NCBI GenBank assembly: GCA_047615545.1
Contig: JBLHID010000003.1
Location: forward strand, 1 to 53,374
Direction of reading: 5' to 3'
Length of the DNA stretch: 53,374 nt
DNA from: Polaribacter sp.
GTDB lineage: Bacteria > Pseudomonadota > Gammaproteobacteria > GCA-001735895
Shown: one piece after another, positions 11,472 through 31,694 of the stretch
Numbering within the stretch: position 1 is the stretch's first letter
Layout of the letters: each line of letters starts with the position of its first letter
Translations under genes and position numbers: made by a program
Notes under the pieces: generated by a model
The model's database searches: none
What the model was told of the DNA's origin: nothing
The model's input: the letters and a program-made list of their open reading frames with translations, nothing else

Positions 11472-14390
11472 GTGTCACGATCCGCAACAAATGCAGCACC
11501 AGAATTTTCGATAGGGCAACGCTGGATAAGCGTTGCCGAACTTCAACTAGGTCTTGGGATGGTGATCGAAATTGAGCATAGGACGGTGAGCATAATTTTC
11601 CCTGCAACGACCGAAACCCGAATATACGCTCGGCAGGACGCACCCTTGTCGCGTGTGCGTTTTTCACCTGACGACTTGGTTTTGAATCAACAGGACGAGG
11701 CTTTCACAATCGTTGAGCTTAAAGAATCGAACGGTCTGATTGTTTATCAATGTCTTAACGAAGCCGGCGAGACAGTTGCGCTTCCGGAAGGGAAGCTCAA
11801 TAATTTCCTTCAGTTAAATCGTCCGGGCGAGCGTTTAATGAATGGTCAAATTGACCGTAATAAATGGTTTGCACTGCGCTATCGCACCCGCGAAATTGCG
11901 AATGCCTTGTTGCAGTCACCGGTGTATGGCTTAGCCGGTTGTCGCACCAGTTTAATCGCACACCAGCTTTATATCGCACACGAAGTCTCACAACGTTACG
12001 CGCCACGTGTCTTGTTGGCAGATGAAGTAGGCCTAGGAAAAACCATTGAAGCCGGTCTTATCTTGCATCAACAATTACTCACAGAACGCGCTAATCGAGT
12101 GTTAATTGTGGTACCTGAAAGTCTGGTGCACCAGTGGTTGGTCGAAATGATGCGACGTTTCAATTTGATGTTCAGCGTGTTCGATGAAGCGCGTTGTGAC
12201 GATATGCTAGAGCAAGATGACGACAGGCAGAACGAGCTGGATAATCCATTTCACAGTGAACAGCTTATTCTTTGTAGCCTACAATTTCTGGTCGATAACC
12301 CGATACGAGCTCAGCAGGCAGTCGAGGGCGAATGGGATCTTCTGGTGGTCGATGAAGCGCATCACCTGAGTTGGTCTGCCGAATCGGTGAGTGACGAATA
12401 CAAAACGGTCGAATGCTTGGCAAAGCAAACACCTGGCGTGCTGTTGCTGACGGCGACACCCGAGCAACTAGGTAAGGAGAGTCACTTCGCTAGGCTAAGG
12501 TTACTAGACCCAAATCGGTTTAATGACTTAAATAGTTTTCTAAAAGAAGAGTCCAACTATGAGGCACTCGCTGATTTAGTCGACGCACTTCAACTAGATA
12601 CATTGTTAGATAGCGGTCAGCTAAAACTGATTGAACAAACTGTTGGTGAAGCTGAAAACCAAAAATGGATTAGCCTGTTAGAAAGTGAAGATAAAGAAGA
12701 TCGGTCTGCTGCGCAAATATCGCTGGTCGAAAACGTGCTTGATCGACATGGTACGGGTCGAGTGCTATTTCGTAATACGCGTCATACCATTAAAGGATTC
12801 CCCGAGCGTGAAGTCCATGCCTATCCTTTGCCGGTATCGGCTCATTGGCAAATGAAATATATGCTTTCAGAAGGTAAGCCAGATCACCCACCACAGTATT
12901 TATTATCACCCGAACTTGGCTTCCAAGAGGATGACGCCAATTTTAATTGGGCCAGTGGCGATGAGCGCATCAAATGGTTAGCAGAATTCCTGCAAAATAA
13001 CACCGACAATAAAGTACTAGTGATTACATCAAGTGCCAAAACAGCCCTTGGAATAGCAGAGCAGGTTCGGCTGAAAACAGGCATAAAAGCCGCTGTTTTT
13101 CACGAAGGTATGAGCTTGGTCGAACGTGATCGTGGTGCTGCATTTTTTGCCGATAATGAAACCGGAACTCAGGTTTTAATCTGTTCAGAAATCGGTAGTG
13201 AAGGTCGTAACTTTCAATTCGCCCATCACATGGTTTTGTTCGACCTACCAGTCAATCCAGATTTATTAGAACAACGCATCGGCCGTCTAGATCGTATCGG
13301 TCAGAATGCCACTATCAATATACACGTCCCTTATTTACAAGGTACTGCGCAAGAAGTGATGTTTCGGTGGTATCACGAAGGCTTAAATGCCTTTACTCAA
13401 ACCTGTGCTGCTGGCCATCAGGTGTTCATGCAGACACGGGTAGAATTATTCAAACATTTGGCCGAACCAGAGTTACCACTCGATAAATTTATCGAGCAGA
13501 GCAATCAGCTTTACCAGCAATTAAACGAAGCCTTACAAGTGGGGCGAGACCGCCTGTTGGAGGCTAACTCCTGTCGACCTCTGCTTGCCGAAGAGCTAGT
13601 CGAAGAAGCAATTGCGCGTGATTATGAGCATGATATTTTCAGCTACATGGAGCGGCTCTACGATTGTTATGGTGTCGACAGCGAAATCCGTGGTCCCGAT
13701 AGTTGGGTTATTTCGCCAGGTGATAACATGCTCACTAAAATGCCCGGCTTACCGGATGACGGCATGACTATCACCTATCGTCGCAATGTCGCACTCGCGA
13801 ATGAAGACCTACGTTTCCTCAGCTGGGAACACCCGTTCGTACGCAATGCAATGGACATGATCCTGAGTAGCGAGTTTGGTAATACCTCGCTAGTGGCCAT
13901 CAAATACAGCACTGTAAAACCGGGCACTATTTTACTCGATTGCCACTTCCTAATGGAATTCTCTGACGACTGTAAGCTCAATAGCCAACGCTACTTCCCA
14001 AACAGCAGTGTACACATGGTAGTCGATGAACAACGTCGAGATCATAGTGCTGTACTCAGCCACGAGACAATCCAAGAAATATCCCAACGGGTTGATATCG
14101 ATACCGCGGTAAAAGTCGTCAAGGCACGCCAGACTGAATTAAATGGTCTGCTTGAACTGGCAGAAAAAGCTGCGAATTTAAAGGTGGCTGCGTTAGTGGC
14201 AGCCGCCAAACAACGCAGTCAAGACGTACTCGAACGAGAAATTGATCGACTGATTGCACTACAAAAAGTAAATGCTAATGTCCGCAACGAAGAGATTCAG
14301 TTCTACCGAGATCAGCTAAGCCAGTTCGAAAGTTCCTTAGGACATGCTAGGTTAAGGTTGGATGCGATACGGGTGATGGTTTCTATTTAG
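11472..14390 (+). CDS. rapA: RNA polymerase-associated Swi2/Snf2 ATPase RapA (start uncertain: GTG 11472 or ATG 11409)
   Basis: FSIGQRWIS, LLADEVGLGKTIEAG, VVDEAHH, SEIGSEGRNFQFA and LEQRIGRLDRIGQ motifs. Confidence 0.97.
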   Translation: MSRSATNAAPEFSIGQRWISVAELQLGLGMVIEIEHRTVSIIFPATTETRIYARQDAPLSRVRFSPDDLVLNQQDEAFTIVELKESNGLIVYQCLNEAGETVALPEGKLNNFLQLNRPGERLMNGQIDRNKWFALRYRTREIANALLQSPVYGLAGCRTSLIAHQLYIAHEVSQRYAPRVLLADEVGLGKTIEAGLILHQQLLTERANRVLIVVPESLVHQWLVEMMRRFNLMFSVFDEARCDDMLEQDDDRQNELDNPFHSEQLILCSLQFLVDNPIRAQQAVEGEWDLLVVDEAHHLSWSAESVSDEYKTVECLAKQTPGVLLLTATPEQLGKESHFARLRLLDPNRFNDLNSFLKEESNYEALADLVDALQLDTLLDSGQLKLIEQTVGEAENQKWISLLESEDKEDRSAAQISLVENVLDRHGTGRVLFRNTRHTIKGFPEREVHAYPLPVSAHWQMKYMLSEGKPDHPPQYLLSPELGFQEDDANFNWASGDERIKWLAEFLQNNTDNKVLVITSSAKTALGIAEQVRLKTGIKAAVFHEGMSLVERDRGAAFFADNETGTQVLICSEIGSEGRNFQFAHHMVLFDLPVNPDLLEQRIGRLDRIGQNATINIHVPYLQGTAQEVMFRWYHEGLNAFTQTCAAGHQVFMQTRVELFKHLAEPELPLDKFIEQSNQLYQQLNEALQVGRDRLLEANSCRPLLAEELVEEAIARDYEHDIFSYMERLYDCYGVDSEIRGPDSWVISPGDNMLTKMPGLPDDGMTITYRRNVALANEDLRFLSWEHPFVRNAMDMILSSEFGNTSLVAIKYSTVKPGTILLDCHFLMEFSDDCKLNSQRYFPNSSVHMVVDEQRRDHSAVLSHETIQEISQRVDIDTAVKVVKARQTELNGLLELAEKAANLKVAALVAAAKQRSQDVLEREIDRLIALQKVNANVRNEEIQFYRDQLSQFESSLGHARLRLDAIRVMVSI

Positions 14391-14441
14391 GCGTAACCTT
14401 AATGAACTGGTAGGTGGAGTTCATTCAGGAAGTAGGTCCAA

Positions 14442-14476
14442 GTAGGGCGGATAAGCGTACTGAACCGCATCATGGC
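14442..14476 (+). repeat. Degenerate GTAG-type REP sequence
   Basis: GTAGGGCGGATAAGCG...CCGCATC resembles enterobacterial-type REP. Two more GTAGG motifs lie just upstream. Confidence 0.4.
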
Positions 14477-14698
14477 CATACACATCAACATATTGGGTGT
14501 CCTAATAGTGTCCCACTCCCACTGGTGTTGCATTAAGTGAAAATGTAGATATGATTTAATTCAGTGAATGTACGATTTTTCGGTTCGAACACTATAATTT
14601 TTAATGCGAATTTTATTACTTAGGACTCCTAGCAGATTAGGCGCTTGTGTCATGAAAGGATTACCGTTGATAGTAAATGTAATATCCCGTCAAATTGA

Positions 14699-14717
14699 CG
14701 TCTACTAAGCGTTAGTT
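14699..14717 (+). mobile_element. Integron core (recombination crossover) site at the cassette 1 left boundary (attI-like, or the right end of a decayed attC)
   Basis: GTTAGTT (14711-14717) is followed by an RBS (AAGGA) and ATG 14732. It is the exact reverse complement of AACTAAC at the cassette end. Confidence 0.7.
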
Positions 14718-14731
14718 GTAAGGAAATAATC

Positions 14732-15163
14732 ATGGAATATATTTCAGCTGATCAAGCTGATGGAAACGAATTAGCTGAATTAAGGGCTTCTACGATGAAG
14801 CCCAGTCTAGTAGCTCTAGATCGTTTTAATGAAATTCGAGTACGAAGCCGATTTTTAGAAAAATGGGAATCAAATGACACTGTTGAAGTTATCGAAAATG
14901 GCGAATTATTAGGGCTCTACGTAGTACGAGAGAGAGGATTACCTTTTTCTTGATCACCTGTATATCAAAATAGCGCATCTAAGCAAAAACCGAGGTAAGG
15001 CCATTATCGAGGTTATAGTCGAAGCAGAAAAATTCAAAAGCTTACCTGTGCACCTTCGAGCATTGAGAGGCAGTCGTGCAAATAATTTCTATATTAAAAA
15101 TGGTTTTAAAAAACTCATAATGGCGAATTTGATATTTACTATGAATATCCAACTCACAACTAA
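14732..15163 (+). pseudogene. GNAT acetyltransferase gene cassette with two frameshifts
   Basis: MEYISADQAD...GLYVVRE, then after a shift in the GA repeat near 14930 EDYLFLDHLYIK...RGKAII...LRALRGSRANNFYIKNGF, then after a shift in the A-run near 15110 KTHNGEFDIYYEYPTHN*. The stop overlaps attC R''. Confidence 0.8.
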
Positions 15164-15223
15164 CAAGGCACTGTTGCCGAAATCACTTGCTGCGCTCGCT
15201 CTCCGTAAAGTGCGGCGTTAATA
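15158..15223 (+). mobile_element. Integron attC site
   Basis: AACTAAC-AAG-GCACT-G-TTGC...GTAA-AGTGC-GGC-GTTAATA: R'' and R' boxes, paired L boxes with an extrahelical G, 66 bp. Confidence 0.8.
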
Positions 15224-15240
15224 GTACTTAGGCCAGGGTT

Positions 15241-15519
15241 ATGATTAGCAAACTAAAAATTGCCTATATAGCTATGATTTATTTTATAGCTTTTGTCTTT
15301 CCATTTTTAGCACTGATTAACTGTTCTAAATGGCCTTTTGTTCTTAATTTAACTGAGAATATCTGCCTGCTTAATTATGAATTTATAAGAAGTACTGAGG
15401 GCTTTCTTAAAGGATTCCATTACGTAAACGCTTTCAATTTATACATTCCTATCATGTGTTATATTGCCTTCGTCGTTATTTTCGCGCATTTTTCGTCGAA
15501 GCTATTCAATAAAAAGTGA
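15241..15519 (+). CDS. Small AT-rich membrane protein, probable second gene cassette
   Basis: 92 aa with two hydrophobic segments. Starts 18 nt after the attC R' box. No downstream attC seen. Confidence 0.55.
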   Translation: MISKLKIAYIAMIYFIAFVFPFLALINCSKWPFVLNLTENICLLNYEFIRSTEGFLKGFHYVNAFNLYIPIMCYIAFVVIFAHFSSKLFNKK

Positions 15520-15551
15520 GATCATAAAGAGATCATAAAAAGATCATAAAG
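15519..15551 (+). repeat. 11-bp tandem repeat x3 (AGATCATAAAR)
   Basis: AGATCATAAAG AGATCATAAAA AGATCATAAAG. The last unit overlaps the inverted-repeat end of the adjacent element. Confidence 0.9.
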
Positions 15552-16066
15552 GACAGGCAGTCTTTAAAATCACCCAATCTACAGTCAGAGAAAACTGTCG
15601 GTTTCAGAAGATAAGTTACAATCTGTGAATAAAAACGGAATTTAACCAAAAAATACGTTTTCCAGGTATAGCTGTCCGCTAACGCTCGAAGCGTTTTCAT
15701 TATTGGTTGGTTATTGCGAGTCAGGCAGTCTTTTACTGGGTTCGTCGCTTTTTAGCGAATTGTGAGGCGTAGAGTTTTTCAAACTGCTGGCTTTGTTGGC
15801 CCTATAAAACAACTAAGCATGGGCACTCTTAAAGTTCACCTTTACCGGAATGAGGATCAATACCACTCAGGTAACTACGACGTACAAAGCGGGAAATAAC
15901 AGGCTGATAGGGAGTATCTTCAATGGCGACGAGCTGTTTTCTGGTTAGGGTCATCGTGTTACTTTAACGATTGAGGTGTATCCTTTCTTCCTTGATATTT
16001 GATGCTGAGTGGGTAATGGTATATTGTGAAACCAAGAGTGCCAATTCGAGAGTGCCTGTCCTTTAT
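15546..16066 (-). mobile_element. Internally deleted RAYT-like/IS200-superfamily HUH (Y1) transposase element with 14-bp inverted repeats
   Basis: Perfect IR ATAAAGGACAGGCA (15546-15559) / TGCCTGTCCTTTAT (16053-16066) encloses transposase fragments on the minus strand. Confidence 0.7.
15829..15954 (-). pseudogene. N-terminal fragment of a RAYT-like transposase
   Basis: MTLTRKQLVAIEDTPYQPVISRFVRRSYLSGIDPHSGKGEL* resembles the recalled N-terminus 'R..LVS.EDTPYYH..SRCVRR.FLCG.D..SG' of marine gammaproteobacterial Y1 transposases. A possible C-terminal relic QQFEKLYASQFAKKRRT follows. Confidence 0.7.
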
Positions 16067-16146
16067 TCTCTGCTAGCGTCCTTGATATTGCTTTTTGGCC
16101 AGAGGGTGGGTCTAGATCGATCATGTATAAATCATCAAGATAGAAT

Positions 16147-17181
16147 ATGGGCGACCATCTAACAAAAGACCTCGATCAGGATCCTATTGCACAGCGCTTG
16201 GCGTTAGCTGATTCAGTTCCCATCATCGATTTTCAAAGGCTTGCTAACGGTCTAGTAACTGAGCAGGTGGTGCAAGAAATAGCCGAAGCCTGCAAAAACT
16301 GGGGTTTTTTCCAGATTGTGAACTACGGTTTTCCAGATAATTTAATCCAAAAAGTGCTGAGCTGCTCACGACATTTTTTTGATTTACCAGTTGCTGCCAA
16401 AGAGTCAATTCTACGTAGCAAAGATAACCCTTGGGGTTATTATAATAACGAGCTGACTAAAAATAAAAGGGACAAGAAAGAGGTGTTTGATTTCACCCGT
16501 CCAGGTATTGATACTATTTACAGTGCAGAAAATCGATGGTTAGCAGATGAAAAGACATTTAAGGCCGTCATGCAGGAGTACTATACAGAGTGTTCAGCGC
16601 TCTCTATGCAATTGCTAAAAGCATTCTGCCGTGGGCTGAATCTTCCTGCGAATTATCTACATAAAGATTTTGAAAATAGCCATACGGGCTTTGTTCGACT
16701 TAATTACTATCCGCTTGAGGATCCACTGGCGGAATCAACGCAAAAACCTCAATCCGAAGCTGGCTACGGTATCCATCACCACACCGATGCTGGAGCCCTC
16801 ACAGTATTGTTGCAAGGTAATATCGGCGGCCTGCAGGTTCATAGAGACGGACATTGGTATGACATTCAACCAATAGAAGGTGCGTTAGTAGTGAATATTG
16901 GCGATATGATGCAAGTATGGTCAAATGACACTTATACGGCAGCAGTACATCGTGTGCAGGCAATGACGCGGTCCAAGCGCTACAGTATCCCTTTCTTTTT
17001 GAATCCTGCGGCGCACGCCCACATAGGTCCATTGCCCACTGTAATTAGTGATCAGCGACCAGCGCTTTATAGTCCGATTAACTGGGCTGAGTATCGTGGA
17101 AAAAGATCAGAGGGTGACTATGCTGATTACGGTACGGAAATACAGATCTCTCAATATAGATTAGAAACCCAAGATTGCTAA
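16147..17181 (+). CDS. 2-oxoglutarate/Fe(II)-dependent oxygenase (isopenicillin N synthase-like)
   Basis: VPIIDF, EACKNWGFFQIVN, RLNYYP, HTD(AGALTVL), H-R and RYSIPFF give the HxD...H and RxS motifs. Confidence 0.92.
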   Translation: MGDHLTKDLDQDPIAQRLALADSVPIIDFQRLANGLVTEQVVQEIAEACKNWGFFQIVNYGFPDNLIQKVLSCSRHFFDLPVAAKESILRSKDNPWGYYNNELTKNKRDKKEVFDFTRPGIDTIYSAENRWLADEKTFKAVMQEYYTECSALSMQLLKAFCRGLNLPANYLHKDFENSHTGFVRLNYYPLEDPLAESTQKPQSEAGYGIHHHTDAGALTVLLQGNIGGLQVHRDGHWYDIQPIEGALVVNIGDMMQVWSNDTYTAAVHRVQAMTRSKRYSIPFFLNPAAHAHIGPLPTVISDQRPALYSPINWAEYRGKRSEGDYADYGTEIQISQYRLETQDC

Positions 17182-17195
17182 CGATTACGCAATAG

Positions 17196-17218
17196 AAGAC
17201 TGCCTGTCGTTTATTCTC
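17196..17218 (+). repeat. Third copy of the RAYT-element end sequence
   Basis: AAGACTGCCTGTCGTTTATTCTC is an 18/19 reverse-complement match to 15546-15564 and a direct repeat of the 16053 copy. Confidence 0.75.
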
Positions 17219-17271
17219 AGTTACGCTGTCAATGGTGGCGATGATAGCTGGTTAGCTAAGTGTTATACATT

Positions 17272-17829
17272 ATGAAAAACTTTGTAATTAGTTTGATAGT
17301 TTTGATCATAGGTTTAGTGGCCATTATTTTGTTTTTAAAAAGCAAAGTATTAACTCCTTTAGAAAGTGCCAGAAAAGCGCTGACGGAGGTTATGTTTCCA
17401 CTTGAAAAAATTACTGATCCAGTATTTAATCAATACAGGGTTGCACCTTATGCATTCAACAAGGCATCCAGTTTAATTTTAGAAAAAGGCACTGATAATT
17501 GGAATTTTAGAACACGTTACCGAGAAGCATTCGAAGCTACGGCGAATTTTGCTGGGAAGTATAAAGTTGTGCAGTGGGGTTGCGGGACGCAATGTCAGCA
17601 GAATTCATTGATAAATCTAGCAACAGGAGAAATTATTAATGGTTTCACATCCAGTTATGGGGTTGGTTATAAATTGAATAGTACGTTGTTTATTGTTAAC
17701 CCTTTTGTAGATGAAGATTTTAAACATGGACGATCGCCTATTTATGCTTCGCCCAAGCTATACAATTTCGATGGAAATAAGTTCTATTTTATAAAAAACC
17801 AAGCACACGAAATTAGAGAGTTTGAGTAA
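17272..17829 (+). CDS. Hypothetical membrane-anchored/exported protein
   Basis: N-terminal hydrophobic helix and a conserved-looking FRT...ANFAGKY..VQWGCGTQCQ motif. AT-rich. Start placed at ATG 17272. Confidence 0.7.
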   Translation: MKNFVISLIVLIIGLVAIILFLKSKVLTPLESARKALTEVMFPLEKITDPVFNQYRVAPYAFNKASSLILEKGTDNWNFRTRYREAFEATANFAGKYKVVQWGCGTQCQQNSLINLATGEIINGFTSSYGVGYKLNSTLFIVNPFVDEDFKHGRSPIYASPKLYNFDGNKFYFIKNQAHEIREFE

Positions 17830-17927
17830 ATGAAACAATCGATCGATATATTAAGATGATAGATCTACTGACTTTTTCGTACGGGTTGCCCGTGACGACC
17901 ATCAAACGTAACTTGAGAAGCTCTTCC

Positions 17928-18566
17928 ATGAATCGTATATTACCCTTAATCGTTATCCTGCTATCCACATCAACAGTCCCTTTACCATCTATCGCCCAGT
18001 CGGATTATCTGTCCGCTCTCGAAAAGGAAGTGCTGGCACAGATGAATCTGGCGCGAACCAATCCCAAAGAGTTCTCCAAGGCCATAATAAAATATCGGTC
18101 TTATTATGACAGCCAAGGGATGGTGCACATTCCTGGAGAGATCACCCTGGGAACCAACGAAGGTGTTGAAGCTGTTGACGAGGCAATCAGAGCGCTCGCT
18201 GAGCAGTCTCCGATTGCAGCGATTAAACCATCGAAAGGTATGAGTGCTGGCGCTCGCGATCATGTAAAAGACCAAGGCCCGAAGGGTGACACTGGTCATT
18301 CAGGTAGCGATGGTAGCGACCCTTTTACACGCGTCAATCGCTATGGTGAGTGGGATGTCACCGCAGGCGAAAACATCAGCTATGGCGCAGACACCGGTGT
18401 CGGTGTCATTCTTCAGCTAATTATCGATGACGGCGTGCCCAGCCGCGGGCACCGCGAGAACATCTTCAATGCCAACTTCCTGGTAAGTGGTGTCGCTTGT
18501 GGTAGTCACAAAGTTTATCGACACATGTGCGTCATCAACTATGCCGGCAGCTACAAAGAGAAGTAA
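17928..18566 (+). CDS. Secreted CAP (SCP/PR-1) domain protein
   Basis: Signal peptide MNRILPLIVILL..., then NLARTNP, GHSGSDGSDPFTR, GENISYG and LIIDDGVPSRGHRENIF. Confidence 0.88.
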   Translation: MNRILPLIVILLSTSTVPLPSIAQSDYLSALEKEVLAQMNLARTNPKEFSKAIIKYRSYYDSQGMVHIPGEITLGTNEGVEAVDEAIRALAEQSPIAAIKPSKGMSAGARDHVKDQGPKGDTGHSGSDGSDPFTRVNRYGEWDVTAGENISYGADTGVGVILQLIIDDGVPSRGHRENIFNANFLVSGVACGSHKVYRHMCVINYAGSYKEK

Positions 18567-18807
18567 AACTATTGCAGGTAGTGACACAAAATAAAGGGAA
18601 TAGAGTAAGAAAACACCTTTAATATTAAACCTGTTTTAGGGTTCTATGTCACCAACAACCTACACAAACCACGGTGTGTGATTGAAGCTTATTGGCAGTA
18701 ATTAATAAAAGGGGTCAAAGACCCACCATTACTTTTTGAAAAAACTTTTCTATAGACTTCTAACCAATTTTATTGGTTTGGGCTCACGCCCTGATATTGT
18801 GTTGCTA

Positions 18808-19866
18808 TTAATTCGTGTATAACGCCCCGGTGCTAGTGGCCAAAAAGTCGTCAAGTGCGATGTCTTCCTGTTTGATAAAGCCCTGCTGGGGTAATTTGCC
18901 ATCGCGTACCATTTCGATCACCGCGACGACCGAGGCAGACGTTGTCCACGAAATAGCTGTACGTTTTTTGTCTGCAATTTCTATAGGTCTATAAGCCCGC
19001 ACAAATTCTTTACGTGCTGGCCGCGAATCACTCATACCTTCAGCTGCGACATGGACATAAACCACATCATCATCGACTGCTGGTTTGGCGTTAACCAAAA
19101 TTTGTCCTGCTTCTTCGCGTCGATCGCGCATCAGTAGTTCGTGAAAAAAGAAGTTCATTAAATCCATGTGGCCGGGATAACGCATGGTTTTGTAATCGAT
19201 GTTGGCGACTTTCCCGAGGTAGGTGTCGCACATGGTTGCGAGCCCGCCCGATGTGGTAAATGCTTCTAGTTTCATGCCGTCGATGTAAATTGTCTCTAAC
19301 CATTCCATGGGTGAAACCCACTTTCGTTCACCATCTTCGATCACTTCACAGTCATTCAAATATTCATTGACGACACCTTCGGGTGACCAGTTAAACGAAT
19401 AGCCCAATAGCCCCGTCGGGTTTTGCGGCAGTGCGCCGACGCGCATTCGACAAGATCGACATTCGCTTAGTTTGGATATCAAGCTGGCACCGACGATACC
19501 GACAAAACCGGGGGCCAGACCGCATTGCGGTGCCATCACGCCACGTGATGTTTTGCCTAGCTCGATAATGGCTTTGGTGGTCGCGACATCTTCGGTCAAA
19601 TCAAAATAATGAATGCCAGTATCATGTGCCAGTTTGGATATTTCAATATTGAGATGAAACGGCAGGCAAGACAGAACCGCATCTACTTTTTCGAGCTCGG
19701 TGCGCATGTTATCGACTGAACTGAGATCGACTACTCTAGTAGCAAAATCAAATCTTTCATTTATTTCACGCAGGTCAAAGCCAACCACATCAAATTTGGC
19801 ATCGTGCAATAGCTGAGCCGCCAACGCGCCTATCTTACCTAGTCCAAGTACTGCAATTTTTTTCAT
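18808..19866 (-). CDS. Lysine 6-dehydrogenase / saccharopine dehydrogenase family protein
   Basis: Rossmann GLGKIG, HYFDLTEDV, PQCGLAPG, WSPEGVVNEY, LEAFTTSGG and YKTMRYPGH. Start at ATG 19866. Confidence 0.85.
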   Translation of the reverse strand: MKKIAVLGLGKIGALAAQLLHDAKFDVVGFDLREINERFDFATRVVDLSSVDNMRTELEKVDAVLSCLPFHLNIEISKLAHDTGIHYFDLTEDVATTKAIIELGKTSRGVMAPQCGLAPGFVGIVGASLISKLSECRSCRMRVGALPQNPTGLLGYSFNWSPEGVVNEYLNDCEVIEDGERKWVSPMEWLETIYIDGMKLEAFTTSGGLATMCDTYLGKVANIDYKTMRYPGHMDLMNFFFHELLMRDRREEAGQILVNAKPAVDDDVVYVHVAAEGMSDSRPARKEFVRAYRPIEIADKKRTAISWTTSASVVAVIEMVRDGKLPQQGFIKQEDIALDDFLATSTGALYTN

Positions 19867-19920
19867 GCTTCTATCTCTTTTCAAGTTAGATAATTTCAAA
19901 TAAGACGGTAGGGATACCCT

Positions 19921-20943
19921 TCAAATAACGACCGCACGTTGCTCGTTCATTCCCATCGACAGTAAAAATGGTTGTTCTGCTTGCCTGTTGATAAAACCCT
20001 GTTTACTGCGAATGCCCTGCCAGTTTTCTGCGATCAAACATTGTGCTATAGCGCCGCCTAGTGTTTGGCCTGGGCCGAGTAGGATAATGTTGTCGGGTGC
20101 AAGCTCACGCAGGCTTGATCTAACCGATGCCATAAAATCATAGGGTGCTACTACTTGATGTCCAAGGGTGTAATCCCACAAGTCTGTTTGATTAGATGCT
20201 TGTGGAAGCCAGACATGTCCGCGACCATCGATCAACGGTAACTCCGGCTGGCGAAATAAGTTGGGTGGCAATTGCTGTTTGGCGATGGCTGAAATAGGTT
20301 GCTGTAGTGGCGAGTGGAACGCGGCGTGATTATGCAGTCGCATTGGGAACCGATCTTGTATGGGTTCGAGCGCTTGCTCGCAAGTCTTGAGCGCTTCCTC
20401 AGTACCCGCAAACACAATCATGCCACCCAGATGTATCGATAAATACAAATCGGGTATGCAATGGGTTAATGCGATTAGCTCATCACGCTTGTGCGGTATC
20501 TCAACCCAGTTTTCATCGACATAGGGGTATAACAGTTGACCACCTATTAGTGCGTCCTGCATTAAAGTACCCATAGTATTCACCACATCAAAACCATGGT
20601 TAGTGTCGAGCACACCAGCGCAGGCGAGGGCGATATACCAGCCCATCGAATTGCCGGCCATGCCAACTATGTCAAATTTATCGCGATTGATTGCTTGGAA
20701 GTCTGCATAGGCACAGGCATAGATTAGCGAAGAGGCATTGTCGCCTCGGGTTAAACGGCTCGTCGAATAGGTTTCAGCGCTATCGAGCTCGGTTAGGGAT
20801 GGCTGACCTAGTGCCTCGCGACGGGCATCAAATTCGGACAGCATTGGCTGTTGGTTTTGATGGTGTTTTGCCAAATAGCCTAGCTCTTGACGGTTATAAG
20901 TGCCTCGTCCAGGACAGATAACCAGTGCTGTTTGTCGCGTCAT
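19921..20943 (-). CDS. FabD-like (SAT/malonyl-CoA:ACP transacylase fold) acyltransferase, atypical active site
   Basis: CPGRGTY (vs FPGQGSQ), GNSMGWY nucleophile elbow (vs GHSLGEY), AAFHS, and GPGQTL. NTMGTLMQ has no Arg where FabD has RGxxMQ. Confidence 0.8.
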   Translation of the reverse strand: MTRQTALVICPGRGTYNRQELGYLAKHHQNQQPMLSEFDARREALGQPSLTELDSAETYSTSRLTRGDNASSLIYACAYADFQAINRDKFDIVGMAGNSMGWYIALACAGVLDTNHGFDVVNTMGTLMQDALIGGQLLYPYVDENWVEIPHKRDELIALTHCIPDLYLSIHLGGMIVFAGTEEALKTCEQALEPIQDRFPMRLHNHAAFHSPLQQPISAIAKQQLPPNLFRQPELPLIDGRGHVWLPQASNQTDLWDYTLGHQVVAPYDFMASVRSSLRELAPDNIILLGPGQTLGGAIAQCLIAENWQGIRSKQGFINRQAEQPFLLSMGMNEQRAVVI

Positions 20944-20946
20944 CGG

Positions 20947-23178
20947 TTACGCCTCAGCCTGAGGTTTAACTAATGCAATAGCCGCATTAACAATACCATC
21001 CCGACTCGGCATGGTCGCACCATAAGCAGGGCCAGTTGCGATGAAGGAGTCTTTGGCGGCTAGGCGAGCAGGAGTGTGCTTCGTTTTTTCGGCAAATAAT
21101 GCCATGAGTGCTTCGCTTTGTGATCCGGTGCTACGGCATTCATCCACAATCAAAACCTGTTTGCAGTCTGCTGTGGCATTGATGATGGCGTTTTCTGGCA
21201 AGGGGGCGATCCAGCGAATATCGACTATTCGGCAAGCAATACCATGTGTTTCACGCAGTATTTTCGCAGCCTGAACTGACAGGTAAAAACCATTCGCATA
21301 ACTGACAATCGCTAATTCCGTATCATTACCCTTACTTTCGGTATAAACGCCGACTGTATCAAAAGTCATGTCTGGCTCACTGCCAACGGCAGGGTATTGG
21401 TAAGTCCACAAACCATCGTCGGGCTGATGCAGGTCACGTGTCATATACAAAGCAATCGGCTCTACAAAAACCACCACACGTTGTTCTTCGCGGGCGAGGC
21501 GTATGGATTCTCGTAGCATTAATACCGCGTCACGACCATTCGATGGGCAAGCAATGACTATGCCAGGGATGTCGCGCAATACAGCCAGAGAATTGTCATT
21601 GTGAAAATGACCACCAAAGCCCCGTTGATAGCCCAGTCCGGCGACGCGGATCACCATCGGATTGCTAAATTGGCCATTGGAAAAAAACGGCAGGGTCGCC
21701 GCCTCGCCACGTAACTGGTCTTCGGCATTGTGTAGATAAGCCAGAAACTGAATTTCTGCAATTGGTACAAATCCGTTATGCGCCATACCAATCGCTAATC
21801 CTAATATTGATTGCTCATCAAGCAATGTGTCGCTGACTCGGCTGACCCCAAAGCGTTTTTGTAAGTGCTGTGTAACTCCATAGACACCGCCTTTGCGGCC
21901 TACATCTTCACCGGCCAACACGACTTCTTTATGATCCATCATTAAGTCAGTCAACGCGAAGTTGATCATTTTTGCCATGTGTTGAGGTTTGTCGAGCGCC
22001 TGTGTGTCTGCTGACCCGAAAGTTAGATGACGTTGCGCTTTGGATGTGGGTTCGACTGGCTCGCAGGTTCGCTTAGGCGGCACAATACTTGCCATTACCT
22101 GTGCCGCCGTCTGCAGGCGAGGTAATTGGATGACCTGTTCGGCGGCCCGCTCAACGCGGTCACCGATGCTGTTATATATTGAGATAACTTCGATAGCGCT
22201 CAAACCGGCGGATTCGATTAAAGTCTTCGCGCTATAAAGTAAAGGGTCGTGTGCTTCGGTGTTTTCAATGTGTTCATTTGACAAATAACTGTTTTGCACG
22301 TCTGGCCCAGCGTGACCATATAGGCGCACGCAGGACATATGCAAAAAAGCAGGTTTACAAGTTCGCCTGACCCAATCGGCTACTTTTTTGGCGGTGGCGT
22401 AAGTGTCTACAATATCCAGCCCATTACATTTGAAATACTTAAGGCCGGGCCGATTTGACATAGTGGCCTCGACCCAACCGATGGGCGTTTTGACTGATAT
22501 GCCAATGCCATTGTCTTCACAGACGAAAACCAGTGGTAACGGGATACCCTGAAATGCATTCCAACAAGTGGTATTGAATGCTGCCTGTGACGAAGCATGA
22601 TTAAGCGAGGCATCACCAAAGCTGCAAAGCACGACTGCATCGTCAGGCAAAGCTTGATGTTCAGGTTTAAGCCGTTTAGCCATGCCTACCGAATAAGCGG
22701 TACCAACTGCCTTGGGTAAATGAGAGGCTATGGTGCTAGTTTGTGGTGGAATAGCGAGAGCCTTCGAACCGAGCACCTTGTGTCGCCCGCCAGAAATAGG
22801 GTCGGATACAGAAGTCGAAAAACTTAGCAGCATATCCCAAAGTGGGGTTTGTCCCGGCACTTGGGCTGCACGGGCAATCTGAAATGCCGCGTCGCGATAA
22901 TGCAGAAAAGCCATATCATCAGGCCGAAAGGCTGATGCAATTGCAGCATTGCCTTCATGACCAGAAGAGCCGATGGTATAGAACCCTTGGCCTTTTGCCT
23001 GCATTTTTCGCGACTTGCGATCAAGCTGACGACTCAATGCTTGCGAGTAAAAGATGCTAACCAAATGCTCTTTACTCAGCCCGGCTTCAGTCAGTGATAA
23101 ATCACTGGTTTTAAAGTCAAGATCCTGTTCGGCAACGCGGCGCAGGAAGTTGTCATGAACAATATCAGCTCTATCCAT
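20947..23178 (-). CDS. Fused alpha/beta ThDP-dependent 2-oxoacid dehydrogenase E1
   Basis: Alpha part: FYTIGSSGHE, GDAS...EDNGIGIS (ThDP motif), RLYGHAG. Beta part: GEDVGRKGGVYGVT, DTLLDEQSILG, EIQFLAY, GGHFHND. Confidence 0.92.
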   Translation of the reverse strand: MDRADIVHDNFLRRVAEQDLDFKTSDLSLTEAGLSKEHLVSIFYSQALSRQLDRKSRKMQAKGQGFYTIGSSGHEGNAAIASAFRPDDMAFLHYRDAAFQIARAAQVPGQTPLWDMLLSFSTSVSDPISGGRHKVLGSKALAIPPQTSTIASHLPKAVGTAYSVGMAKRLKPEHQALPDDAVVLCSFGDASLNHASSQAAFNTTCWNAFQGIPLPLVFVCEDNGIGISVKTPIGWVEATMSNRPGLKYFKCNGLDIVDTYATAKKVADWVRRTCKPAFLHMSCVRLYGHAGPDVQNSYLSNEHIENTEAHDPLLYSAKTLIESAGLSAIEVISIYNSIGDRVERAAEQVIQLPRLQTAAQVMASIVPPKRTCEPVEPTSKAQRHLTFGSADTQALDKPQHMAKMINFALTDLMMDHKEVVLAGEDVGRKGGVYGVTQHLQKRFGVSRVSDTLLDEQSILGLAIGMAHNGFVPIAEIQFLAYLHNAEDQLRGEAATLPFFSNGQFSNPMVIRVAGLGYQRGFGGHFHNDNSLAVLRDIPGIVIACPSNGRDAVLMLRESIRLAREEQRVVVFVEPIALYMTRDLHQPDDGLWTYQYPAVGSEPDMTFDTVGVYTESKGNDTELAIVSYANGFYLSVQAAKILRETHGIACRIVDIRWIAPLPENAIINATADCKQVLIVDECRSTGSQSEALMALFAEKTKHTPARLAAKDSFIATGPAYGATMPSRDGIVNAAIALVKPQAEA

Positions 23179-23229
23179 ATTTTAAATATCAGCGCTTAAA
23201 AATGGGCTCTTCAATATCAGCCCGTAAAA

Positions 23230-24444
23230 TCAGAAAAATGCCTGCAAGCCAGTTTGTGCTCGCCCAAGAATCAAGGCATGCACGTCGTGCGTTCCTTCGT
23301 AGGTATTGACTGTTTCTAGGTTTAGCATGTGGCGCATGACATGAAAGTCTTCATGGATACCGTTACCACCATGCATATCGCGTGCGATGCGGGCAATTTC
23401 CAACGCTTTTCCACAATTATTACGTTTCATCATCGATATCATCTCAGGTGCCATCTGGCCATCATCGAACAGCCGACCTAACCGGAGTGAACCCTGCATA
23501 CCCAACGTAATGTCGGTTTGCATATCAGCTAGTTTTTTCTGGAAAAGCTGCGTTTGTGCCAACGGTCGGCCGAATTGCTTGCGGTCGAGACCATACTGTC
23601 TAGCAGCGAACCAGCAACTTTCAGCCGCGCCCAGCACGCCCCACGAAATACCATAGCGCGCCCGATTAAGACAACTAAATGGCCCCTTAAGACCTTCGGC
23701 ATCAGGTAGCAAAGCGTCTTCACCAACTTCAACATTACTCATCACTATCTCGCCAGTGATGGATGCGCGCAAGCTCAGCTTGCCCTCGATCTTCGGTGTC
23801 GATAACCCTGTCATGCCTCTGTCGAGAATAAACCCGCGAATCTTATTGTCGTGTGCCTTGGACTTTGCCCAGACCACAAATACGTCGGCAATAGGGCTAT
23901 TCGAAATCCACATCTTAGAGCCATTCAAACGATAGCCATTGCTGGTTTTTTCCGCTCTGGTGCTCATGCTGGCCGGGTCTGAACCAGAGTCGGGTTCAGT
24001 TAAACCAAAGCAACCAATGAATTCACCACTGGCGAGTCTTGGTAGATACTTTTGTTTTTGCTGTTCCGAGCCAAACGCGTGGATGGGGTACATTACCAGG
24101 GACGATTGCACCGACATCATCGAGCGATACCCCGAATCTACGCGTTCAATTTCACGGGCAATCAAGCCGTAAGAAACATAATTGGCACCAATGCCGCCAT
24201 ACTCTTCTGGCACAGTGGCACCAAGCAAGCCCATGTCGCCCATTTCTTTGAAAATTCCAACATCGGTGGTTTCGTTTCGATAGGCTTCGACCACGCGCGG
24301 TAGTAATTTTTCCTGCGCGAATTCGCGAGTGGCGTCTCGCAGCATGCGTTCATCATCGCTAAGCTGCTGGTCAATCAGAAAAGGGTCATCCCAGACGAAG
24401 TTTGCCGTGTGCTTGTTTGATTTTTGATTCATGTCTTGACTCAT
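23230..24444 (-). CDS. gcdH: Glutaryl-CoA dehydrogenase
   Basis: [38 protein letters not shown] and [25 protein letters not shown] are GCDH-specific. Confidence 0.95.
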
Positions 24445-24481
24445 TTTGTGATTGCAGGCCTGATCATCATGCCGATAATCT

Positions 24482-24601
24482 ATTCCGAAACTTCATGTTA
24501 TGCGTAGCCATTATTCAGTATATAGCCATAACTCGCTAGTATATTGAGTCGAAAGTGGATTAATATTGACATTCTCACATATTAATATGCATAAACGGAA
24601 T
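24482..24601. promoter_or_regulatory. Divergent gcdH/gcdR promoter region with LysR T-N11-A boxes
   Basis: ATTCCGAAACTTCAT (24482-24496) and ATGCATAAACGGAAT (24587-24601) are related, oppositely oriented T-N11-A elements. Confidence 0.4.
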
Positions 24602-25499
24602 GATAGCTTCTAGAAGGTTTTTACCGTCGACCAGTCAACTGCTCGCTTTTGAGGCGGTAGCACGACATCAAAGTGTTACGGTGGCAGCGCAGGAACTCTC
24701 ATTAACGCAGAGTGCTGTCAGTCGGCAATTGCAAAAACTAGAAGCGCAGATCGATATAACGTTGTTTAATCGTAAAAGAAAGCGTGTGAAACTAACCGCC
24801 GCAGGCGAAATCTACTTCGAAGAAATTCAGGCCGCGTTAAAGCAAATTGCCAATGTCACCCTCCGGCTTAAGTCTAATCCGGAAGGTGGAAGTCTCAATC
24901 TCGCTATCTTACCAACCTTCGGCACACGTTGGCTTGCCCCTCGATTGAATGATTTTCTGACGAAAAATGCTGGAGTGACCATTAATCTCAGCACTCGACT
25001 GGTCCCTTTCAATTTTGATAGTGAGGCGATGGATGCCGCAATATATTTTGGCTCGCCCTCGTTATGGCCAGAGTGTGAATATCAAAAGATTATGGATGAA
25101 GCGATATTGCCAGCTTGTGCCCCTGCTTTATTGGCATCAGTGAAAGTGACAACCCCTGCTGATTTGCTCAAATTGCCGCTGTTGCATCTGCAGACACGGC
25201 CAGACGCCTGGCAACAATGGATGAGGGGTCATGAGGTAGATTCATCCAATCTGACAGGTATGTCATTTGATCAATTTGCGATGATGAGCAATGCCGCTAC
25301 GCAAGGTGTGGGTGTCGCACTTTTGCCTCAGTTTTTAATTGAATCAGAACTACTTGATGGCCAGTTAGTATCTGCCTATGGAAATGCAGCAAGTAGTCAG
25401 GGAAGTTACTATTTGGTATGGCCAAAACAAAAAAAACATTATAAGCCTTTGTTGCGGTTCAGAACTTGGTTGAGGAATCAGACTGATAATCTGGTTTGA
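24600..25499 (+). CDS. gcdR: LysR family regulator (GcvA-like), divergent from gcdH
   Basis: LPSTSQLLAFEAVARH...LTQSAVSRQ HTH and LAILPTFGTRWLAPRL. Position matches GcdR. Confidence 0.85.
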   Translation: MIASRRFLPSTSQLLAFEAVARHQSVTVAAQELSLTQSAVSRQLQKLEAQIDITLFNRKRKRVKLTAAGEIYFEEIQAALKQIANVTLRLKSNPEGGSLNLAILPTFGTRWLAPRLNDFLTKNAGVTINLSTRLVPFNFDSEAMDAAIYFGSPSLWPECEYQKIMDEAILPACAPALLASVKVTTPADLLKLPLLHLQTRPDAWQQWMRGHEVDSSNLTGMSFDQFAMMSNAATQGVGVALLPQFLIESELLDGQLVSAYGNAASSQGSYYLVWPKQKKHYKPLLRFRTWLRNQTDNLV

Positions 25500-28537: not shown

Positions 28538-29011
28538 ATGAGTTTGATCAAGTTAGATGCTACCGACCTTCGTATTCTGGCTGCTGTTCAGGCTTATGGG
28601 CGTTTGAGCAAAACGGCCTTGGCCGAGAAGGTTAATCTATCAGCAACGCCATGTTGGACTCGCCTAACACGACTCGAGAAAGCGGGCGTTATCAGCGGTT
28701 ATCATGCTGAGATAGCGTTTGGGAAAATTGCCAATGTGGCAACGGTCATGTTGGAGATTTCGCTTAAACAACATCGTTATCAGGACTTCGAACGATTTGA
28801 GAAAAGGATTTGTGAAATTGATGAAATTGTCGAGTGCATTGCTACTGGTGGCGGCATCGATTACATCATGAAACTCATTGTACCGAGTATTGCGGCATAT
28901 CAGACACTGATCGATAGTTTGCTAATCGAAGATATTGGTATAGATCGCTTTTTCACCTACATCGTGACACGTGAAATCAAGTCGATCAAACCCAGGTTAA
29001 TCGACTTATAA
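28538..29011 (+). CDS. Lrp/AsnC family transcriptional regulator
   Basis: LDATDLRIL, LAEKVNLSATPCWTRLTRLEKAGVI, GGGIDY and FTYIVT motifs. Confidence 0.93.
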   Translation: MSLIKLDATDLRILAAVQAYGRLSKTALAEKVNLSATPCWTRLTRLEKAGVISGYHAEIAFGKIANVATVMLEISLKQHRYQDFERFEKRICEIDEIVECIATGGGIDYIMKLIVPSIAAYQTLIDSLLIEDIGIDRFFTYIVTREIKSIKPRLIDL

Positions 29012-29177
29012 CCATCGTTTTTGTCTGTCTTTTCGCTAACAGTCTAAACAGACTGTATATCATTAAAGATCAACCCGATCATGCCGCACTGGCCCGCTAA
29101 TAGAGTCCAAACGAGTGACTCAATCCGAGTATGCTCACCACTTCGAATTCTACTTAACTAAAGGCTAGAGTATTCAT

Positions 29178-30332
29178 ATGAGCAATTCTATGGTCGGCGA
29201 TGTCGGTTTCGGCACACAAATTCGCAAGTCACCCTATTTTGATGCGACGGTACGATGGGGCGCGCAGGGGTTCTCTGTCTACAATCATATGTACATACCT
29301 CGTGATTTCGGTGATCCAGAGCAAAACTTCTGGAATTTGGTAAATGAAGCCATTTTGTGTGATGTTGCTGTCGAGCGACAGGTCGAAATCACAGGGCCCG
29401 ACGCTGCTCAATTTGTTCAGCTGCTAACGCCTCGTAATCTCTCCGAGTGTGCGGTTGGACAGTGCAAATATATTTTGATCACCAATGCTGAAGGCGGCAT
29501 TTTAAATGACCCAGTTCTATTACGTCTGGCAGACAATCACTTTTGGATATCACTTGCTGATAGTGATATTTTATTGTGGGCACAGGGTGTTGCGATCAAT
29601 TCAGGTTTAGATGTCACCATCGGCGAACCAGATGTATCGCCGCTGCAGTTACAAGGTCCTAAATCGGGTGAAGTGATGAAAGCAGTGTTTGGTGACGAGA
29701 TCGAAGACTTGCCATATTTCTGGCTCAGAGAGTTTGACTTGAATGGCATACCTTTGATTATTTCTCGAACAGGTTGGTCGAGCGAACTTGGATATGAAAT
29801 CTACTTACGTGATGGCCGCTATGGCGAAGAACTCTGGGAGCATTTGATGTCAGTGGGTGGGCCACTCGGGCTGAAGCCGGGGCATACCTCAACAATACGG
29901 CGTATTGAGGGCGGCATGTTGTCCTACCATGCTGATATGGATTGTCATACCAATCCCTACGAGCTAGGCCTAGGTCGGCTGGTTGATTTAAATATGGAAG
30001 CAGACTTCATTGGTAAAGTAGCGTTGAGCAAAATTGAACAGGAAGGTGTTACGCGTCAACAGGTGGGTATCGAAATTGATTGTCCAGCCCTGCAAAGCCC
30101 GAATACGCGTCATTGGCCAATTTCTATTGGTTCGAAAAAGGTGGGTTACGTCACCTCTGCAATATATTCTCCTCGCCTTAAACGAAATATTGCGCTGGCT
30201 ATGATCGATAGCGAATACAGCTCTGAAGGTACAACTGCGGTTGTTGATATGGCTTCTGGTCAGTCGCCAATCATCGTTGTACCGAAACCATTTTACGACC
30301 CCAAGAAAATCATAGCAGGAGTGGTACTTTGA
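29178..30332 (+). CDS. GcvT-family THF-dependent demethylase/aminomethyltransferase, DmdA-like paralogue
   Basis: YNHMYIP, DVAVERQVEITGPDA, NDPVLL, WISLADSD and QGPKS resemble DmdA. GWSSELGYE and PGHTSTIRRIEGGMLSYHAD differ from canonical DmdA (GWSKQGGxE, PGCPNLIERIE..LLSYGND). Confidence 0.8.
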   Translation: MSNSMVGDVGFGTQIRKSPYFDATVRWGAQGFSVYNHMYIPRDFGDPEQNFWNLVNEAILCDVAVERQVEITGPDAAQFVQLLTPRNLSECAVGQCKYILITNAEGGILNDPVLLRLADNHFWISLADSDILLWAQGVAINSGLDVTIGEPDVSPLQLQGPKSGEVMKAVFGDEIEDLPYFWLREFDLNGIPLIISRTGWSSELGYEIYLRDGRYGEELWEHLMSVGGPLGLKPGHTSTIRRIEGGMLSYHADMDCHTNPYELGLGRLVDLNMEADFIGKVALSKIEQEGVTRQQVGIEIDCPALQSPNTRHWPISIGSKKVGYVTSAIYSPRLKRNIALAMIDSEYSSEGTTAVVDMASGQSPIIVVPKPFYDPKKIIAGVVL

Positions 30333-30359
30333 TGACTATAGTAATTTTTGGAGATCGTG

Positions 30360-31693: not shown

Positions 31694-31694
31694 C

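Follow-up and report, generated by a model that had tools for sequence, protein, structure and literature searches.

The contig JBLHID010000003.1 of assembly GCA_047615545.1 (53,374 nucleotides, referred to below as the window) carries on its minus strand a run of four genes that encode, in order of transcription, a predicted glutaryl-CoA dehydrogenase (GcdH), a thiamine diphosphate (ThDP)-dependent 2-oxoacid dehydrogenase E1 component having its alpha and beta parts fused in one chain, a FabD-like acyltransferase (AT) and a protein of the saccharopine/lysine dehydrogenase family. The assembly to which the window belongs, as contig C3, totals 2.69 Mb and has a completeness rating of 78%. An earlier note, made from the letters of this DNA, had described this run together with a divergently transcribed LysR-family gene and had put E1 and the acyltransferase 3 nt apart. 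All five open reading frames (ORFs) lie where that note placed them, and in window coordinates the AT start codon falls 3 nt past the E1 stop codon. The features are collected in Table 1. We asked what the unusual pair of E1 and AT does and with which partners.

Table 1 Features of the operon and its flanks, with positions in the window.
Feature	Position	Strand	Content and remarks
LysR-family regulator	24600-25499	+	PF00126 and PF03466; divergent from the operon
Divergent intergenic region, 155 bp	24445-24599		Presumed promoter/operator, function inferred from the arrangement only
GcdH, 404 aa	23230-24444	-	PF02771, PF02770 and PF00441
Fused E1 alpha/beta, 743 aa, ThDP-dependent	20947-23178	-	PF00676 (46-352), PF02779 (400-575) and PF02780 (618-717)
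Predicted FabD-fold Ser-His acyltransferase (AT), 340 aa	19921-20943	-	AlphaFold model and Foldseek; coupled to E1
Saccharopine/L-lysine-dehydrogenase-family oxidoreductase, 363 aa	18808-19899	-	PF03435 and PF16653; candidate lysine 6-dehydrogenase
Terminator-like hairpin, weak candidate	18712-18724	-	84 nt past the last gene

Homologues of AT were collected from species-representative genomes (6 loci), from an even 400-genome sample of the phylum (10 loci, E ≤ 1e-40) and from 399 genomes of the class (1 locus). These surveys are samples in which related genomes are not independent of one another, and 'not found' refers throughout to the genomes searched. In all 17 loci the same fused E1 lay directly upstream of AT on the same strand, and no AT was seen away from this E1 in the 17 loci examined. 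As this adjacency recurs in every AT-homologue locus, the E1-AT arrangement of the window is not a product of chance. The spacing is also tight, since among 16 loci the E1 stop and AT start codons overlapped by 4 nt in eight and were separated by 3 nt in four; the other spacings were -1, -16, -19 and +12 nt and a single +110 nt, which is the only case of more than 12 nt. The carriers of AT were gamma- and alphaproteobacteria. Close AT homologues also occur in named isolates, among them a Bradyrhizobium sp. and a member of the Rhodospirillaceae. E1 and AT form a conserved and tightly coupled module, and the conservation of the pair, which the earlier note had proposed to check, held in every AT-bearing locus. 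A natural fusion of E1 with AT was also sought and the candidate discarded, the sole longer match to AT (P0121; 711 aa, 39% identity) having a remainder that was Arg-rich and free of Pfam domains, a weak null result. With its AT-like middle and long domainless Arg-rich flanks, P0121 is best explained by a frame shift or by mistranslation of a high-GC contig, and not as a fusion protein. Finally, a complex was predicted from E1 residues 47-372 and 398-737, entered as two chains, plus AT residues 4-336. One control run with a substitute for the beta chain reached a score no lower than that of the complex, so that the prediction spoke neither for nor against a contact of E1 with AT.

Comparison with solved structures placed the first gene of the operon with little ambiguity. 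GcdH matched the Burkholderia glutaryl-CoA dehydrogenase 3gnc at 6.3e-191 (637 bits) and the human enzyme 1sir at 4e-166 (556 bits), and it scored at most 242 bits against acyl-CoA dehydrogenase subfamilies other than GcdH versus at least 343 bits with named solved GcdH proteins. By these scores the product is assigned as a decarboxylating glutaryl-CoA dehydrogenase. The best solved relative of the protein of the last gene was 3abi (PH1688; 1.3e-19), a putative L-lysine dehydrogenase. Its database relatives bear the automatic names L-lysine dehydrogenase, lysine 6-dehydrogenase and saccharopine dehydrogenase. The true start of this gene is likely the ATG at 19866, directly before the GxGxxG motif. 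A gene of the lysine/saccharopine dehydrogenase family followed AT only in the three closest relatives of the window locus (L003-L005).

The neighbours of the pair in other genomes point to the same pathway. GcdH adjoined E1-AT in seven of 16 AT-bearing loci, and a homologue in the GcdH range (385-709 bits) lay within 7 kb of E1 in five of the ten loci that have E1 and lack AT. In two of the 16 loci (L020 and L027) the pair adjoined an aldehyde dehydrogenase of the ALDH7/Pcd type, the family of aminoadipate-semialdehyde/piperideine-6-carboxylate dehydrogenases. The alphaproteobacterial locus L020 has the order FAD oxidase, ALDH7, AT, E1 and class I aminotransferase plus a LysR gene, and its aldehyde dehydrogenase matched the piperideine-6-carboxylate dehydrogenase 6rtr at 5.9e-191 and human ALDH7A1 at about 1e-148; in L027 the ALDH7-type gene stands directly after AT. 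Owing to these two loci and to GcdH, the pair has steps giving 2-aminoadipate and then 2-oxoadipate on its one side and a consumer of glutaryl-CoA on the other. The best explanation of the operon, as judged from gene content, is that its products carry out the last part of lysine catabolism by the 2-aminoadipate branch, from 2-oxoadipate to crotonyl-CoA. This agrees with the lysine and 2-oxoadipate assignment made earlier, given GcdH in seven and ALDH7 in two of the 16 loci and the oxidase and aminotransferase of L020. Going by its gene neighbourhood only, the fused E1 is probably a 2-oxoadipate E1.

The AT protein (ACYLTRANSFERASE) was modelled by AlphaFold from an alignment of 30 family members, which are 36-82% identical to the window protein, and the model had a mean pLDDT of 96.1. 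The top Foldseek matches were FabD proteins (malonyl-CoA:acyl carrier protein transacylases, MCAT), namely 3k89 (E 4e-18, TMq 0.76), 3hjv, 3ezo, 1mla and 6u0j, with E values of about 1e-17 and TMq values of 0.67-0.76. The structural matches also included trans-acting polyketide acyltransferases and PksD, a trans-acting acyl hydrolase (8aw0), and over the whole set TMq was 0.66-0.76 and identity 15-23%. By sequence profile the relationship is faint: AT gave no Pfam match at E ≤ 0.001, PF00698 (Acyl_transf_1) included, a match of 5e-15 and 55.7 bits to the fabD model TIGR00128 (cut-off 260.9) and a weak match to mdcH.

Four stretches of AT are invariant in 30 of 30 members: P11-G12-R13-G14, G97-N98-S99, F209-H210 and D239-G240. 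In alignments to FabD proteins of solved structure, the serine of the GNSMG motif (G97-N98-S99-M-G101) and the histidine of AFHS fall on the GHSLG and SH motifs. Since Ser99 and His210 are invariant, AT is predicted to be a working Ser-His acyl-enzyme catalyst. The motifs of the family (PGRGTY, GNSMGWY and DGRG) are distinct from those of FabD, and at two active-site positions AT departs from FabD. In both alignments the RG-LMQ stretch of FabD, the arginine of which we take to be the malonyl-binding Arg117 (E. coli FabD numbering), aligns with TMG-LMQ in AT, and T123, M124 and G125 hardly vary among family members. The glutamine position of the FabD PGQG motif is the invariant Arg13 (PGRG). 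The apparent loss of the aligned malonyl-binding arginine would fit a different, possibly longer, dicarboxyl acyl group, and we infer that Arg13 may bind such a group.

The FabD-fold Ser-His protein of the earlier note thus came through, its fold supported by model and Foldseek and its dyad unchanged in 30 of 30 members. That AT is the housekeeping FabD was rejected on the score (55.7 versus 260.9 bits), the lost arginine and the finding of a true FabD above the cut-off elsewhere in each of the five complete AT-bearing genomes that were checked. No other FabD was found in the assembly of the window, and its sole acyl carrier protein (ACP) match, acpP, sits at the very start of a contig (C156:127-327). 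The apparent gaps of FabD and of GcvH in this assembly, which is 78% complete, are probably assembly gaps and not real absences. Of the AT homologues that bear a name in the databases, nearly all are called either 'ACP S-malonyltransferase' or 'acyl transferase domain-containing protein', and this annotation is very probably wrong. On its model AT is also no E2 (dihydrolipoamide acyltransferase) by homology, the fold being that of FabD and not chloramphenicol acetyltransferase-like, so that any E2 role would make it a non-homologous analogue.

In the E1 component, PF00676, PF02779 and PF02780 all scored above their cut-offs in the one 743-aa chain. The best solved relatives were alpha/beta-type E1 subunits (1ik6, 1um9, 2bp7 and 1w85), and among the 34 solved matches listed none was named a 2-oxoglutarate or 2-oxoadipate E1. 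By sequence the protein falls with the alpha/beta (heterotetramer-type) E1s and not in the class of the 2-oxoglutarate E1 (E1o) and DHTKD1, and it lacks the adjacent E2 with lipoyl and subunit-binding domains that is usual in its family. Its catalytic residues are invariant in 23 of 23 aligned members: the GDAS...CEDNG motif for ThDP and Mg (D189 and N223), H289 (GHAG), E475 (EIQF) and H524/H526 (GGHFHNDN). The activating glutamate E475 and the active-site histidines H526 and H289 align with E59beta, H128beta and H271alpha of the pyruvate E1 (E1p) of G. stearothermophilus, the equivalence to that numbering being by motif from the alignments to solved E1s. In the G. stearothermophilus study, H128beta is put forward as the residue that donates a proton when lipoate is reductively acetylated, a His at its position is given as conserved in all known E1s, and an H128Q mutant kept decarboxylation and lost complex activity (PMC2663715).

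Because E1 keeps the glutamate and both histidines of canonical E1s, it should still need a lipoyl carrier. No redox domain, be it flavin, iron-sulfur or other, was found in either protein, Pfam giving the three E1 domains and nothing in AT. As neither has such a domain, it is hard to see how a glutaryl thioester could be formed oxidatively if there were no dithiolane to accept the group. The economical assumption for this E1 is a lipoylated carrier acting in trans.

The distribution of the pair turned out to be lopsided. A search of the 400 sampled Pseudomonadota genomes with E1 gave 20 carriers (about 5%; E ≤ 1e-60, 45-66% identity), only ten of which had AT. In the other ten, all listed as 100% complete, the AT-family profile gave nothing beyond FabD- or polyketide synthase (PKS)-type matches of 34-55 bits, whereas true AT members reach 532-596 bits in the profile search and at least 249 bits when a single sequence is the query, and no AT gene was present in the ten E1 loci. 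In a maximum-likelihood tree of 27 E1s (17 with AT and ten without), six of the AT-less proteins formed a deep sister clade and the other four were nested in the AT-bearing clade, a pattern that needs at least three changes of AT presence. Two of the nested AT-less loci (L037 and L040) directly adjoin GcdH, L040 with the order LysR, GcdH, E1 and ABC transporter, and in three loci of the deep clade a homologue scoring in the GcdH range is no more than 7 kb away. As AT-less E1s are nested among AT-bearing ones, two of them still beside GcdH, E1 appears to work without AT. On this comparison AT would thus depend on E1, and E1 not on AT. An E1 signature for docking of AT was considered and rejected: 203 alignment columns are invariant in the 17 AT-bearing rows, 157 of these are also invariant in all ten AT-less rows, and only two of the 203 change in at least two of the four nested AT-less rows.

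The finding of E1 alone in half of its carriers, together with the lack of any AT-specific signature in E1, could mean that E1 is an ordinary orphan with a fully shared E2 and E3 (dihydrolipoamide dehydrogenase) and that the role of AT is unrelated to acyl flux, such as regulation or action on another substrate. This we hold to be hardly likely, since AT was in no case found apart from E1 (17 of 17) and their start and stop codons mostly overlap, and its conservation at 36-82% identity over two classes with an invariant dyad argues for an E1-bound function.

Where the acyl acceptor of E1 might come from was addressed by searching for E2 catalytic domains, lipoyl domains, E3 and carrier proteins. 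The earlier note had seen no E2, E3, lipoyl domain or ACP beside the genes, and indeed the window contig is devoid of such matches; all those to PF00198, PF00364, PF02852 and PF00550 in the assembly are on other contigs, with the PF00198 matches on C11 and C127 only. The candidates for a lipoyl arm in this genome are E2 proteins of 457 and 395 aa and a 595-aa fusion of a lipoyl domain with E3. The fusion frame (C11, about 5097-6797; G000, L032) has an N-terminal lipoyl and a C-terminal E3 dimerisation domain and stands directly after the 457-aa E2. This fusion might also lend its lipoyl group to the orphan E1. A search of the 78%-complete assembly for GcvH gave no match. No homologue of E2, of a lipoyl domain or of biotin carboxyl carrier protein was found in 26 E1 loci of 11-20 kb.

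The number of PF00198 matches, which are matches and not copy numbers, was 2, 2, 3, 3, 3, 3, 3, 3, 3 and 5 in ten AT-bearing genomes and 3, 3, 3, 3, 3, 3, 3, 3, 4 and 5 in the ten AT-less ones, with a median of 3 in both. That extra E2 genes compensate in the AT-less genomes was dropped as an idea, these counts showing no usable difference. At two AT-less loci (L042 and L046; G151:C144 and G361:C1) E1 lies about 10 kb from an E2 of 408-413 aa that is the best PF00198 match of its genome, and at L042 an E3-like fragment stands at the locus edge. In these two genomes E1 may be near a sucB-lpd cluster.

These results bear on the strict form of the proposal in the earlier note, in which AT replaces E2 as the sole obligatory acyl-transfer catalyst and takes glutaryl directly from E1, or through a stand-alone carrier such as GcvH, with no E2 involved. 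The lack of E2 in all 26 loci, the tight E1-AT coupling, the invariant catalytic Ser-His of AT and the mere two E2 matches of genomes G216 and G176 would all suit such a system. Yet E1 occurs without AT in ten of 20 genomes, nested among AT-bearing relatives and beside GcdH, and at conserved positions AT-bearing and AT-less E1s can hardly be told apart. If glutaryl passed directly from ThDP, an oxidant would be required, and none is visible in either protein. The lipoyl-type active site of E1 is intact, the median number of E2 matches is the same in both groups, and the 78%-complete assembly of the window gave no GcvH. A strictly E2-less enzyme is therefore very unlikely, and the proposal that AT stands in for E2 was not supported in view of the ten AT-less genomes, the four nested E1s and the lipoate-acylation residues that E1 keeps. 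What held of the earlier interpretation is the pathway, the conserved pair and the FabD fold; its neighbourhood survey bore out GcdH beside seven of 16 pairs and loci devoid of E2, and failed in that E1 occurs without AT in half of its genomes.

We tentatively favor, at somewhat less than an even chance, a milder reading in which AT is an accessory bypass or clearing enzyme for the orphan E1, helpful but dispensable, by which the glutaryl group on dihydrolipoyl would be handed to CoA or else removed. The scheme would run as follows. The fused E1 would decarboxylate 2-oxoadipate and then reductively glutarylate a lipoyl-lysine arm in the manner of canonical E1s. Since none of the loci provides a dedicated E2, E1 must borrow the arm in trans, be it that of the 2-oxoglutarate E2 (E2o/SucB), the pyruvate E2 (E2p), the lipoyl-E3 fusion or GcvH. 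The foreign E2 core would handle a glutaryl-loaded borrowed arm poorly. AT, made in step with E1, would take glutaryl off the S-glutaryl-dihydrolipoyl onto Ser99, with CoA as the next acceptor or else water. Transfer to CoA would supply GcdH with its substrate, glutaryl-CoA, and leave the borrowed arm open to E3. The accessory role would explain why AT is always linked to E1, why some lineages do without it, why AT-bearing and AT-less E1s are so alike and why no E2 accompanies them. In this scheme we infer the substrate of E1, from its neighbours, as well as which protein donates the lipoyl arm, which way the AT reaction runs and what accepts its acyl group.

A bolder version has AT as a dihydrolipoyl-glutaryl:CoA transferase, the first E2-type catalyst of the FabD fold, so that E1, AT, any lipoylated carrier and E3 would make up a minimal 2-oxoadipate dehydrogenase that bypasses the classical E2 core and is the main route to glutaryl-CoA in AT-bearing bacteria. 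This is possible, though we consider it rather unlikely.

Several points weigh against the accessory role. The functions given to both families are comparative assignments throughout, and the substrate is read from gene neighbourhood. In seven of the 16 AT-bearing loci (L006, L007, L021, L022, L023, L025 and L026) the neighbours within the sequence retrieved had no similarity to GcdH, ALDH7 or the lysine dehydrogenase-like protein; the survey of these loci was by similarity to the query proteins, with a few flanking ORFs also scanned against Pfam, and the L006 sequence ends before the region upstream of E1. Known FabD-fold enzymes take acyl groups from thioesters of CoA or of carrier-protein phosphopantetheine, and we know of none that acts on a dihydrolipoyl thioester. 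The closest functional precedent, ABHD11, differs in fold from AT and the analogy is of function only. That AT-less genomes cope does not prove that AT-bearing genomes use a borrowed E2 core, and the AT-bearing genomes G216 and G176, with only two E2 matches, are compatible with AT as the sole glutaryl-transfer catalyst. Lastly, the genome of the window, at 78% completeness, gave neither GcvH nor FabD. Regarding two of the seven loci (L021 and L022; G176 and G196), genes of a BCCT-family transporter and of a branched-chain-amino-acid-type ABC transporter precede E1-AT in place of GcdH. These may serve uptake of the pathway substrate or may hint at a different substrate in that lineage.

If AT releases glutaryl to water as its proper reaction rather than by default, it would be a glutaryl-lipoyl thioesterase, a bacterial counterpart of ABHD11 that clears the borrowed E2o arm, protects the tricarboxylic acid cycle and releases glutarate. 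The accessory, dispensable distribution of AT fits such a role, ABHD11 sets a precedent, and hydrolases of the FabD fold exist, as PksD among the structural matches attests. However, the thioester would then be wasted although the GcdH of the operon needs glutaryl-CoA, no glutarate-CoA transferase or ligase was found beside the pair among the annotated ORFs, and one-to-one translational coupling suits a main-line enzyme over a repair enzyme. We regard hydrolysis as the main function as unlikely.

AT might instead work in the usual direction of FabD, with glutaryl-CoA or the CoA ester of a different dicarboxyl acyl group as donor and an ACP or other pantetheine carrier as acceptor, for example toward pimeloyl-ACP and biotin or in another synthesis. 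This would be the canonical chemistry of the fold, and a study of biotin synthesis states that Alphaproteobacteria draw the glutaryl-CoA of that route from lysine catabolism and that some BioZ proteins accept glutaryl-ACP (PMC7645780). The same study states that glutaryl-ACP has never been observed in nature (PMC7645780). Moreover, no ACP, ketosynthase or bio gene was found beside the pair, in the window or among the annotated ORFs, AT is tied to E1 and not to GcdH or any synthase, and a biosynthetic branch within a catabolic operon would be unusual. We strongly doubt this alternative.

The operon looks like a horizontally mobile or acquired accessory trait, since on the E1 tree the clade of the window protein nests within an alphaproteobacterial clade, and since a genome of the same genus lacks both genes. 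Two genomes of the genus (G543 and G703) were available; one has neither E1 nor AT, and in the other E1 is cut by a contig end. The LysR-GcdH-E1-AT-dehydrogenase operon of an uncultured Acidimicrobiia metagenome-assembled genome (L004) is 87-90% identical to those of gammaproteobacterial metagenome-assembled genomes and groups with them on the E1 tree, and this contig is probably mis-binned.

As to regulation, the LysR protein had the GcvA subfamily as its best NCBIfam match (264 bits, under the cut-off of 288), and we call it GcdR-like by its divergent position beside gcdH only. LysR homologues flank the E1-AT module in L003-L005, L008 and L020 and one is also present at L040. Over 18400-24700 a scan gave ten terminator-like sites versus 6.7 ± 2.8 in shuffled sequences, i.e. 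no excess, and no promoter-like sites above shuffle expectation, the 155-bp divergent region included.

Elsewhere in the window the G+C content dips to 0.395-0.41 (from about 0.46) at 14001-18000, directly upstream of the operon in window coordinates, a region that holds a 2-oxoglutarate-Fe(II) oxygenase gene (16147-17181), a 189-aa ORF that has no Pfam family and a CAP-domain protein. On the plus strand at 28538-33326 stand genes of an Lrp/AsnC regulator, a GcvT-family aminomethyltransferase, OsmC, an enoyl-CoA hydratase and an AMP-binding acyl-CoA ligase. This run has the look of the dimethylsulfoniopropionate demethylation (DmdA/DmdD/DmdB-type) cluster of marine bacteria and is a candidate for one.

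In the literature found, subscription journals and supplementary tables being outside its scope, there was no description of a fused alpha/beta 2-oxoadipate E1, of a FabD-like partner of E1 or of their pairing, nor was a bacterial enzyme for conversion of 2-oxoadipate to glutaryl-CoA identified. 2-Oxoadipate is reported to feed glutaryl-CoA-dependent biotin synthesis, and the enzyme of this step is not named in the passages concerned (PMC7645780). The fused E1 is a well-supported candidate for this activity. The system as we read it would be a 2-oxoacid dehydrogenase having an orphan E1 and, should the transfer from lipoyl to CoA be true, a catalyst new for its fold. If AT acts on glutaryl-dihydrolipoyl at all, it would represent a new activity of a classic fold and a non-homologous solution to the E2 step. 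Because related genomes carry E1 either together with AT or alone, the function of AT is open to direct test.

Four known systems are instructive in this regard. The first is human DHTKD1, which is described as using E2o (DLST) of the 2-oxoglutarate complex. The proposed reaction of the window E1 is the same and likewise feeds a glutaryl-CoA dehydrogenase (GCDH in human), and in both cases an E1 lacking its own E2 would use the lipoyl arm of another complex. DHTKD1 is a homodimeric enzyme of the E1o type, whereas the window E1 is of the fused alpha/beta heterotetramer type, and to our knowledge DHTKD1 has no FabD-like partner. The second system is the actinobacterial OdhA/KGD, an E1 that carries its own acyl-transfer catalyst, has no lipoyl domain and is reported to receive its lipoyl-lysine in trans from E2p (PMC10415282). 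It differs in that a classical E2-type catalytic domain is fused to E1, whereas here a separate enzyme of predicted FabD fold is found that is missing in half of the E1 carriers.

The third system is FabD/MCAT with the DisD, PksC, PksD and VinK-like enzymes, which share with AT the predicted fold (TMq 0.66-0.76) and the Ser-His acyl-enzyme machinery. Among FabD and trans-acting PKS family members there are some that pass acyl groups from one carrier thiol to another or release stalled ones by hydrolysis. They differ from AT in sequence (15-23% identity) and in that AT adjoins E1 rather than fab or PKS genes. The fourth is ABHD11. In human mitochondria glutaryl-lipoyl adducts are reported to persist on the shared E2o and to inactivate the 2-oxoglutarate complex unless ABHD11 removes them, the causes proposed in the same passages being the greater stability of glutaryl adducts and the sharing of E2 (PMC12643935). 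Like the role suggested for AT, ABHD11 is an accessory Ser-His enzyme that removes glutaryl from an E2 lipoyl arm, one shared by the 2-oxoglutarate and 2-oxoadipate dehydrogenases; it differs in having an alpha/beta-hydrolase fold and in that it hydrolyses, CoA being described as fitting its pocket poorly (PMC12643935). Unlike AT it is not genetically coupled to E1. If AT does act on glutaryl-dihydrolipoyl, the E1-AT pair would be a bacterial parallel to the glutaryl-lipoyl adducts that form on the shared E2o of human mitochondria.

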